Shown here: positions 4,820-37,096 of the stretch, piece after piece
Position numbering within the stretch: position 1 is the first letter of the stretch
How the letters are laid out: every line of letters begins with the position of its first letter
NCBI GenBank assembly: GCA_964532215.1
Contig: CAZHHU010000001.1
Location: 10,971-64,820 of the forward strand
Direction: 5' to 3'
Origin: an uncultured Geminicoccaceae bacterium
GTDB taxonomy: Bacteria; Pseudomonadota; Alphaproteobacteria; Geminicoccales; Geminicoccaceae
DNA length: 53,850 nt
The notes under the pieces: model-generated
The model's input: the letters and a program-made list of their open reading frames with translations, nothing else
Told to the model about the DNA's origin: nothing
Databases searched by the model: none
Program-made: the position numbers and the translations under genes

Positions 4820-4895
4820 GGGGCCGTAGCTCAGTTGGGAGAGCGCCAGAATCGCACTCTGGAGGTCGGGGGTTCAAGTCCCCTCGGCTCCACCA
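4820..4895 (+). tRNA. tRNA-Ala (anticodon CGC)
   Basis: 76 nt folded by hand into a cloverleaf: acceptor GGGGCCG/CGGCTCC with the G3:U70 alanine identity pair, anticodon loop AUCGCAC (U33, CGC, A37), T-loop TTCAAGT, encoded CCA. Confidence 0.95.
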
Positions 4896-4982: not shown

Positions 4983-5055
4983 AGATCCGTGCTCATCGCG
5001 CTCTGGGCGCCGCAGGCATATTCCCGCGACGCGGCATTTCCCGGAGGGTTCTTCC

Positions 5056-5583
5056 TTGCGCAGCACCACCGAATTCTCCCGCCCCTTCGAGATCGCCGAG
5101 CTCGCCAAGGCGGCGTTGCCCTTCGAGATCGAGGCGACGCCCGATGAGCGGGCCGCGGTCGCCCGCCGACTGGAGCTCCTGGAGTTGCCGGAGCTTCGCG
5201 CCCAGGGGCGGGTCGAGGCGGCAGGCGGCGGTGTCGTCCGCGTGCGCGGTCGCGTCGTGGCGCAGCTCGTGCAGCGCTGCGTGGTCACGCTCGAGCCGGT
5301 GGAGAACCGGGTCGAGGCCGATTTCGAGCGCCTGTTCCTGCGCAGTGGCGGCGCGGCCTCCACCTTGGTCGAAGTCGCCGCCGAGGAGGTGGACATCGAG
5401 CCGCTCCTCGGCGATATCCTCGACCTCGGCGAGATCGTGACCGAGGAACTCGCGCTCGTCATGGATCCCTATCCCCGTGCGCCCCACGCCTCGGAGTATC
5501 TCGAGGCCTACACCCGGGAACAGGACCGCGAGCCTCCCGCGAGCCCGCTTGCGGCCCTGCTCGGGCGGCGGCACGGGGACTGA
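5056..5583 (+). CDS. yceD: YceD/DUF177 family protein (ribosome maturation / 23S rRNA accumulation factor)
   Basis: ORF 4969..5583. TTG at 5056 has GGAGGG 8 nt upstream. The acidic C-terminal part (DIEPLLGDILDLGEIVTEELALVMDPYPRAP) and the position directly upstream of plsX are typical of the family. Confidence 0.8.
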   Translation: MRSTTEFSRPFEIAELAKAALPFEIEATPDERAAVARRLELLELPELRAQGRVEAAGGGVVRVRGRVVAQLVQRCVVTLEPVENRVEADFERLFLRSGGAASTLVEVAAEEVDIEPLLGDILDLGEIVTEELALVMDPYPRAPHASEYLEAYTREQDREPPASPLAALLGRRHGD

Positions 5584-22971: not shown

Positions 22972-23003
22972 AAAAAAAGGCGGCTCCCGCTCACGGGAGC
23001 CGC
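22972..23003 (-). terminator. Rho-independent terminator (minus strand)
   Basis: Minus strand: GCGGCTCCCG-TGAG-CGGGAGCCGC (perfect 10-bp stem, 23003..22980), then C and T7 (22978..22972). The plus-strand reading has no U-tail. Confidence 0.75.
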
Positions 23004-23074
23004 AACACCATCGGCCAGGGAGGGAAGGGAAACTTGCCGCAATCGACGGACGTCCTGCGCCCGCCTCTTGCTGC
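22972..23074 (-). ncRNA. candidate ~100-nt trans-acting sRNA with a C/U-rich anti-SD tract (MmgR/alpha-r8-like architecture)
   Basis: It has its own promoter (23080..23108) and intrinsic terminator (22972..23003). The GUUUCCCUUCCCUCCCUGG tract lies at 23032..23015. There is no credible ORF. The 5' end is inferred from -10 spacing only. Confidence 0.5.
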
Positions 23075-23079
23075 GCCGC

Positions 23080-23108
23080 AACATAATGGCCCGCCCGCAA
23101 AGCTGCAA
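23080..23108 (-). promoter_or_regulatory. candidate sigma70-type promoter of the sRNA
   Basis: Minus strand: TTGCAG (23108..23103), 17-nt spacer, TATGTT (23085..23080). The -10 is overlapped by the 18-nt box shared with the phasin promoter. Confidence 0.45.
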
Positions 23109-23265
23109 TGACCGCTCCGGAATGGCAGCCATGCATGCGGTGCATGGCTCTCTTGTCGGCCGTCAAGGACGTGCGCGGCCTTCGCAGCCGCGAAGGGCCC
23201 GCCGCGCCGTCGTCCATGCGTAAAGGAAGCACCGGCAGCAGGCGGATCTCCCGCCTGCGCCCGTC

Positions 23266-36022: not shown

Positions 36023-36400
36023 TTACGCCGCGAGCTTGCGCATCTCGTCGAGGTTGGCGGCGGCGCGCTTGACGAGCAGCTCGACGACCTGGCTCTGGGT
36101 CTTGAGCCCGAGGTCGACGGTCTCGCGGATCTGGCCCACCGCCTTCTCCAGCGCCGCCTTCGCCTCCTCGGCGTAGCTCGCGGGCTGCTTCTTGGGATCG
36201 AGGCCCTTCATGAGCTCCTCGGCGCGGGCGATCGCCTCCTCGAACAGCGCCGCCTGGCGCTTTCCGAGGGCGGTCGAGAAATCGAACAGGATCTTCTGGG
36301 CCTGGAACCAGGTCTCGAGGTTCTCCCGCTGGAGCCGGAGCAGGGCCTCGAGATCGAACTTCGGAAGAACGGGTGACACCGTCTGCGCCTTGGCGCTCAT
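36023..36400 (-). CDS. phaP: phasin family protein (PHB granule-associated)
   Basis: 125 aa, all-helical. FDLEALLRLQRENLETWFQAQKILFDFSTALGKRQAALFEEAI is typical of alphaproteobacterial phasins. SD GAGGAGG lies 6 nt before the ATG. Confidence 0.88.
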   Translation of the reverse strand: MSAKAQTVSPVLPKFDLEALLRLQRENLETWFQAQKILFDFSTALGKRQAALFEEAIARAEELMKGLDPKKQPASYAEEAKAALEKAVGQIRETVDLGLKTQSQVVELLVKRAAANLDEMRKLAA

Positions 36401-36436
36401 GGCTTACCTCCTCGCGCGTTTTGCTGCGGCGCAACA

Positions 36437-36465
36437 TAGATAGGCCGGACCGACCCCGGATGCAA
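36437..36465 (-). promoter_or_regulatory. candidate phaP promoter
   Basis: Minus strand: TTGCAT (36465..36460), 17-nt spacer, TATCTA (36442..36437). It is overlapped at -10/+1 by the 18-nt box TATGTTGCGCCGCAGCAA (36438..36421). Confidence 0.45.
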
Positions 36466-36490
36466 GGAAAAAATTGTGCATCGCACAAAA

Positions 36491-37096
36491 TCAGCCGGCG
36501 GGCGAGGGCCGCGTGGACCGTCGATCCGCGAACAGCGGCCCGAGGCCGGCGAGGCGGCGGAGGAGCCAGCTCCGCAGCCTTTCCGGATCCTGCCGCGAAT
36601 CCAGCGCCCAGCGCGCGAGTGCCCCGAGGAAGAGAGCGGTGACGGCGATCTCCTGGGCGCTGCGCCTGAGGCCTGTGGATTCGATGCGCGCGGCATCGAG
36701 CATCCAGTGCACGAGCCGCGAGAGATCGAAGACCATGGGCAGCCAGTGGTGGGGATGGAAGGGATAGAGCTTGTGGGCGATCATCTCCCGCGCCTGGTCG
36801 CGATGCGGCTCGACGGCCTCGAACCAGCGCAGCATGACGAGCAGCAGCCGGTCCCGCGCCGAAAGGCGGTGGAAACCCTCGGGAGGCTCGGCCACCACCG
36901 CATCGAGTGCCCGGTCGAAATAGGCGTTGGCGATCGCGTCGAGATCGCGGAAATGGGCGCGGAGCTCGGAGAGCGGCAGATCGAGGGCCTCTGCGATGTG
37001 GAACATGCGCAGATCGGCCCAGCCCCGCTCCGCGGCGAGGGCGAGCGCGGCATCGACGATGCGCCGCTCGAAGGCGCGGCGGCCGGCGTAGCTCAT
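36491..37096 (-). CDS. TetR-family transcriptional regulator (tentative)
   Basis: 201 aa. N-terminal TetR-type HTH: IVDAALALAAERGWADLRMFHIAEALDLPLSELRAHFRDLDAI. ATGA overlap with the upstream dehydrogenase gene. Confidence 0.7.
   Translation of the reverse strand: MSYAGRRAFERRIVDAALALAAERGWADLRMFHIAEALDLPLSELRAHFRDLDAIANAYFDRALDAVVAEPPEGFHRLSARDRLLLVMLRWFEAVEPHRDQAREMIAHKLYPFHPHHWLPMVFDLSRLVHWMLDAARIESTGLRRSAQEIAVTALFLGALARWALDSRQDPERLRSWLLRRLAGLGPLFADRRSTRPSPAG

Follow-up and report, generated by a model that had tools for sequence, protein, structure and literature searches.

Two promoters in the DNA studied here, those of a phasin gene and of a candidate small RNA (sRNA), carry nearly the same 18-nt box, which raises the question whether one repressor controls both transcripts. 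An earlier note had proposed that the box is a common operator of the PhaR/AniA type. In the window (the whole stretch of DNA that was analysed, 53.85 kb) and in homologous loci, this proposal was supported by matches to published consensus sequences, by conservation in relatives and by the near-uniqueness of the box in the window. We estimate the probability that the box on the phasin and sRNA promoters is an operator of the PhaR (AniA/PhbF) class at about 80%.

A palindrome at the phasin and sRNA promoters

The features of the two promoters are as follows.

36023..36400, minus strand: phasin gene, 125 aa; Pfam Phasin_2 (PF09361), E 1.1e-8, 35.6 bits against a cut-off of 24.9
36421..36438, minus strand: proximal PhaR-type box of the phasin promoter, TATGTTGCGCCGCAGCAA; 12-mer consensus at 36433..36422
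36437..36465, minus strand: putative sigma-70-type phasin promoter; TTGCAT (36465..36460), 17 nt, TATCTA (36442..36437)
36471..36491, no strand assigned: distal PhaR-type box of the phasin promoter, near-perfect palindrome ATTTTGTGCGATGCACAATTT; core TTGTGCGATGCACAA at 36488..36474
36491..37096, minus strand: TetR-like open reading frame (ORF), 201 aa; TetR_N 19.6 bits, below the cut-off of 24; weak PsrA-type match
23068..23085, minus strand: PhaR-type box of the sRNA promoter, TATGTTGCGGCGCAGCAA; 12-mer consensus at 23080..23069
23080..23108, minus strand: putative sRNA promoter; TTGCAG (23108..23103), 17 nt, TATGTT (23085..23080), aligned among the sRNA copies

Against TIGR01841 the phasin scored 27.2, under the cut-off of 30.2.

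Minus-strand reading and a pattern search of the window placed TATGTTGCGCCGCAGCAA at 36438..36421 and TATGTTGCGGCGCAGCAA at 23085..23068. The two boxes were identical at 17 of 18 positions, as claimed before, and their sole mismatch was the centre base of the N3 spacer in a TGC-N3-GCA dyad. When up to three mismatches were allowed, the 18-mer matched just these two boxes in the window (expected 0.01), and none of the 100 shuffles reached two matches. Direct counting on the minus strand reproduced the promoter geometry described earlier. The proximal phasin box directly follows the putative −10 element, covers the putative +1 and stops 20 nt short of the ATG at 36400, and the sRNA box overlaps the putative −10 (TATGTT) and +1. 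A generic scan for E. coli-consensus promoters called neither the phasin nor the sRNA promoter.

The 18-nt box has the form of an inverted repeat of 17 bp, TTGYTGC-N3-GCASMAA, in which the core TGC-N3-GCA is invariant. TTGC-N6-GCAA, the dyad given in the earlier note, does not stand as the functional dyad, and TGC-N3-GCA within the 17-bp repeat takes its place. Similarly, the statement that there is no third copy was correct for the 18-mer at up to three mismatches, but not for the motif class. A third site, 36491..36471, absent from the earlier note, lies just upstream of the −35 of the phasin promoter, with its centre 52 bp (about five helical turns) from that of the proximal box. Hence, the window holds three predicted operators of the PhaR class, of which two bracket the phasin promoter and the third lies over the −10/+1 region of the sRNA promoter.

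Agreement with published sites, specificity and conservation

The sequence TGCRNYGCASMA is the consensus of Bradyrhizobium diazoefficiens PhaR, obtained from DNase footprints (PMC6201568). Both boxes matched it at 12 of 12 positions, and so did the distal site, on both strands (36474..36488). In the window, this 12-mer occurred at three sites, corresponding to four strand hits, all at the two promoters (expected 0.42), and four hits were reached by none of the 100 shuffles. Furthermore, the sRNA box TGCGGCGCAGCA is identical to the B. diazoefficiens cyoA site given in PMC6201568. The PhaR 21-mer of Sinorhizobium meliloti, WNWD2NYGCRNYGCRNH2WNW (PMC12542648), was matched without mismatches by the sRNA box and the distal phasin site and with one mismatch by the proximal phasin site; this 21-mer is degenerate and was not enriched in the window (four found, 2.5 expected). 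The H. seropedicae motif TG-N-TGC-N3-GCAA (PMC3206438) was searched in the relaxed form TGNTGCNNNGCAR, which matched the proximal phasin box and the sRNA box on both strands and was found five times in the window (expected 0.89). In these two boxes, a G replaces the final A of the H. seropedicae motif on the transcribed strand. The distal phasin site did not match the relaxed H. seropedicae pattern. The R. sphaeroides site CTGC-N3-GCAG, to which the earlier note referred, is indeed cited in PMC3206438, and it is half matched by the proximal phasin box and the sRNA box.

The bare 9-mer core TGCRNYGCA is common, with 18 occurrences in the window, mostly within genes. The specificity is therefore carried by the flanking half-site bases. 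A weight matrix built from the sites of the relatives alone was applied to the window. The sRNA box was the best site (28.0 bits), followed by the proximal (26.3 bits) and distal (25.8 bits) phasin boxes. The next-best site in the window had 5.5 bits, leaving a gap of about 20 bits, and the best of 30 shuffles had 16.5 bits. One could argue that the boxes are a chance similarity without function, given the frequency of the 9-mer and the abundance of short TGC/GCA strings in DNA with 70% GC. This explanation is effectively refuted, however, by the low expectation for the 18-mer pair, the confinement of the 12-mer to the two promoters, the 20-bit gap and the conservation of the boxes, and its remaining probability is next to nil.

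In 640 kb of related GC-rich loci, strong sites beyond the phasin and sRNA promoters were found at about five distinct positions, mostly upstream of genes. This differs from the many unrelated, non-promoter copies that, according to the earlier note, would speak against an operator. A full-strength box, TTTTGTTGCGTCGCAGCAAGG (28.8 bits), was present at 1973-1993 of L016/L133, in the coding sequence of an aminotransferase, 230 nt upstream of the sRNA promoter box. Three more distant relatives carried PhaR-type boxes of 19-25 bits in a like position (L061, 28-48; L062, 23-43; L064, 14-34), upstream of a type-II NADH-dehydrogenase-like gene (at about 125 nt in L062). These boxes hint that the regulon may reach respiratory genes, which in B. 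diazoefficiens is reported for cyoABCD. Another PhaR-type box, CGATTGTGCGGTGCACAAAAA (25 bits), was located upstream of a cysD-like gene at 6481-6501 of L142, which is the one locus with a degenerate sRNA promoter box. In the window, a tRNA gene (4820-4892, 65.9 bits) is followed by the yceD-plsX-fabH region, where two candidate PhaR sites in the leader (5019..5039 and 5056..5068) were rejected on account of an improper TGC-N3-GCA core or a score of about 1-2 bits.

Five distinct homologues of the phasin, with 60-65% identity, were present in the protein collection, one of them from 'bacterium HR40', and they showed the same 3-hydroxyacyl-CoA dehydrogenase-phasin synteny. Based on its COQ9-family neighbours, the lineage groups with Geminicoccaceae and Benzoatithermus. 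Each of the five homologous phasin loci (L003, L004, L006, L009 and L011) keeps both upstream boxes. Four of these loci (L003, L004, L006 and L011) also keep CTTGCR (CTTGCA/CTTGCG) at −35 and CCTAYCT at −10, while the remaining intergenic DNA diverges, and in these four loci and the window the centres of the two boxes are 51-53 bp apart. In L009, the two phasin boxes are 23 bp apart and flank the −35 in the manner of S. meliloti.

The TetR-like ORF of the window is wedged between the 3-hydroxyacyl-CoA dehydrogenase gene and the phasin gene, and recalls PhaD, a regulator of the TetR type that controls phasin genes in Pseudomonas. As TetR regulators bind palindromes, and as this ORF (37096..36491) abuts the distal box, with a stop codon that overlaps the 21-mer, the boxes might be bound by a local PhaD-like regulator rather than by PhaR. 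This is very improbable in our view. The ORF is present in L003 and L004, but it is absent from L006, L009 and L011, where both boxes persist. Moreover, the sRNA loci carry the box without a TetR-like gene nearby, and, base for base, the motif corresponds to PhaR sites in the literature. Binding by a repressor of the PhaR class is the reading that we retain.

The candidate sRNA and its promoter

Downstream of the sRNA box, we found no ORF with coding character. Instead, the sequence has the features of a small RNA.

22972..23074, minus strand: candidate sRNA of about 100 nt, with 5' stem-loop, C-rich block, terminator and U-run
23074..23036, minus strand: 5' stem-loop, with the GCAGCAA of the box in its outer stem
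23034..23007, minus strand: unpaired C-rich anti-Shine-Dalgarno block AGUUUCCCUUCCCUCCCUGGCCGAUGGU, from the single-sequence fold
23003..22980, minus strand: stem of a strong intrinsic terminator, with the U-run at 22978..22972
23129..23147, no strand assigned: dyad CCATGC-N7-GCATGG, a cis element not of the PhaR type, centred about 65 nt upstream of the putative sRNA start

The terminator is preceded by UUUCCCUUCCCUCCCUGG. Copies of the sRNA were sought in the metagenome collection by an 18-mer from its body, so that there was no selection for the box. Homologues were found in L100, L107 (two copies), L108, L125, L133 (the same sequence as L016) and L142; L132 was identical to the window. The box TTGTGCRNYGCAGCAAG was present at the same place in seven of the eight sRNA copies and degenerate in that of L142. 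In the RNA itself, the 26-nt block UUUCCCUUCCCUCCCUGGCCGAUGGU was invariant in seven aligned homologues, with a difference of one base in copy 1 of L107, and the C-rich block was invariant from UUUCCC onward. The stem-loops fold in every copy from differing sequences. The inner stem at the 5' end varies between lineages, and the terminator shows compensating changes (GCGGCUCCC/GGGAGCCGC versus GCGGCUUCC/GGAAGCCGC). This folding and conservation support a real transcript that would start at or just upstream of GCAGCAA, which in turn would place the sRNA box at −10/+1. An RNAalifold consensus on a MAFFT alignment of the sRNAs was discarded as meaningless, as the variable stems were misaligned, and single-sequence folds were used.

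The genomic context of the sRNA differed among loci. In the window its neighbours are COQ9 on one side and an HpcH/CitE-like gene on the other. An aminotransferase gene precedes it in L016 and L100, and in the remaining loci it is found elsewhere. Synteny with the upstream COQ9-family gene was considered and rejected, as among 80 genome loci the sRNA was downstream of COQ9 in L016 alone. Short BLAST hits in L022, L025, L028 and other loci were also rejected as sRNA copies, because they represent the coding sequence of a convergent gene. In L107 (1090-1460), two sRNA modules are arranged in tandem, head to tail, each with the dyad, a PhaR box, the C-rich core and a terminator.

The position of the box at the start of the sRNA allows another explanation of the 17/18 identity, namely a shared promoter architecture, a duplicated promoter module or an RNA-level element at the 5' end (GCAGCAA at both 5' ends) rather than a protein operator. 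The left part of the box (TATGT) indeed coincides with or abuts the putative −10, and transcription would include the right part, GCAGCAA, whose pairing with UUGCGGC closes the 5' stem-loop of the sRNA. Yet the distal phasin site, which lies upstream of the −35 and hence is not transcribed, is a near-perfect palindrome of the same motif. Furthermore, the unit conserved across relatives is the symmetric TGC-N3-GCA dyad, whereas N3 and the flanks vary, and L009 kept both boxes despite their different position relative to the promoter. We rate an origin in promoter or RNA architecture as quite improbable.

The PhaR matrix did not detect the dyad CCATGC-N7-GCATGG, which lies about 64 nt upstream of the PhaR box of the sRNA and has no second copy in the window. 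The dyad was recognisable in all eight sRNA copies and exact in five of them; the departures concern one or two half-site bases (CCATGA in L125, GCATGC in copy 2 of L107, ACCATGC in L142). With its T-N11-A form, typical of LysR-type sites, the dyad may serve as a binding site for an activator. For mmgR of S. meliloti, AniA acts as repressor and NtrC as activator (PMC7143759, PMC8401924). The sequence TGCACCGCA (23144..23136) was considered as a second PhaR site of the sRNA promoter, but the relatives have CCATGCG-N5-CGCATGG at this position, without the N3 spacing, and the site is not scored by the matrix.

At gathering thresholds (GA), Rfam gave no match at the sRNA. A local search with RF00519 (suhB/MmgR, alpha-r8) yielded 19.6 bits against a GA of 41 (E 0.09 in a search of 401 nt), and the homologues in L107, L108, L125 and L133 gave no hit to this family at E ≤1. 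Copy 1 of L107 has a weak likeness to Rfam SorY (29.9 bits against a GA of 111). The sRNA does have the features of the MmgR type, with an unpaired CCUCCC anti-Shine-Dalgarno motif and an intrinsic terminator. As in RF00519, an unpaired CCUCCCU is followed by a GC-rich terminator, and the promoter carries a PhaR-type box. In contrast to RF00519, the score remains below the family threshold, four homologues lack a hit and one copy is weakly SorY-like. The sRNA resembles MmgR in design, yet its score does not demonstrate membership in RF00519.

We tentatively consider, at somewhat less than even odds, that the sRNA represents a separate anti-Shine-Dalgarno family of Geminicoccaceae-like, partly hot-spring alphaproteobacteria rather than an orthologue of alpha-r8/MmgR. 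It would then form a self-contained mobile cassette, composed of the CCATGC-N7-GCATGG activator dyad at about −65, the PhaR box at −10/+1 and the sRNA, that can duplicate in tandem.

A predicted PhaR circuit in a distant lineage

A search for phaR by its N-terminal NRRLY motif gave no match in the window or in the related loci examined, and the presence of the regulator in this genome is therefore assumed. In the circuit that we infer, with PhaR as the binding protein, repression from the operators over the putative transcription starts, titration by PHB and mRNA targets of the sRNA, the sequence of events would resemble that in R. eutropha, B. diazoefficiens and S. meliloti. Without PHB, free PhaR would occupy the operators and so block both promoters to RNA polymerase. 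Formation of PHB granules would titrate PhaR onto the polymer, with joint de-repression of the phasin gene and the sRNA. The sRNA would then probably damp the translation of mRNAs with a strong Shine-Dalgarno sequence. Possibly these targets include the phasin mRNA itself, which would limit overshoot in an incoherent feed-forward loop.

Such a loop had been suggested in the earlier note. Its common-operator part fits the results above, while the arm from the sRNA to the phasin mRNA found no specific support. For the duplex between the sRNA and the translation-initiation region of the phasin, RNAduplex predicted −21.7 kcal/mol, and the background averaged −21.9 kcal/mol (rank 18 of 35; the gene starts used for comparison are approximate). 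The sRNA and the phasin mRNA shared only the generic 5-6 bp match between Shine-Dalgarno and anti-Shine-Dalgarno sequences (GGAGG/CCUCC). In S. meliloti, the effect of MmgR on phasin is described as direct or indirect (PMC8401924). We regard the complete feed-forward loop as rather doubtful.

The closest parallel is found in S. meliloti, where gel-shift assays showed binding of PhaR to the promoters of phaP1, phaP2 and mmgR, which was lost on mutation of the palindromes, and each phaP promoter has two PhaR sites (PMC12542648). Repression of mmgR by AniA, mentioned in the earlier note, is borne out by the same paper, in which PhaR represses mmgR and shifts its promoter. For this regulon, PMC12542648 also cites Ceizel Borella 2018. 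Both systems share a palindrome of the TGC-N3-GCA class on phasin and sRNA promoters and two sites per phasin promoter. The half-sites are nearly the same (TTGTGCACCGCAGCA in S. meliloti mmgR, TGTTGCGGCGCAGCA here), and both sRNAs have a C-rich anti-Shine-Dalgarno motif and a terminator. There are also differences. The sRNA box in the window lies at −10/+1, whereas the mmgR box of S. meliloti lies between −35 and −10 (PMC8401924). The phasin sites are 52 bp apart here and 18-28 bp apart in S. meliloti (from the coordinates in PMC12542648). The sRNA measures about 100 nt, versus 77 nt in S. meliloti, and scores under the Rfam threshold for mmgR. Finally, the lineage studied here is an uncultured relative of Geminicoccaceae and 'bacterium HR40', whose circuit is predicted from its sequence.

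All three sites of the window match the PhaR operator of B. diazoefficiens at 12 of 12 positions. No sRNA target is described for that system (PMC6201568), and here each site is part of a longer palindrome, of 17 bp, with arms rich in T. As summarised in PMC3206438, PhaR of R. eutropha has two binding sites at phaP, one at the start site and the other upstream of the −35. The phasin promoter of the window similarly has two operators, one over the putative transcription start and one upstream of the −35. The R. eutropha sites are described in PMC3206438, however, as repeats of 12 bp that bear no relation to the TGC-rich site of P. denitrificans. Taken by analogy, the set of boxes looks like an instance, in a new lineage, of the circuit known by experiment in S. 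meliloti.

The co-control of phasins and a small RNA by PhaR, a repressor that responds to granules of the storage polymer PHB, has been shown by experiment in one rhizobium and would thereby extend to a distant, uncultured alphaproteobacterial lineage. Three precisely placed predicted operators, a 17-bp consensus in refined form and another conserved dyad emerge from the analysis. All are directly testable, and they can be used to annotate PhaR regulons and an sRNA family not recognised by Rfam in metagenome-assembled genomes. If the sRNA does form a separate family, PhaR control of an sRNA that mimics ribosome-binding sites, beside that of phasins, would have evolved on more than one occasion, or else go back to an ancestor of a large share of the Alphaproteobacteria. 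The extension suggests that the coupling of granule-coat synthesis to an sRNA may be a general design of PHB homeostasis.
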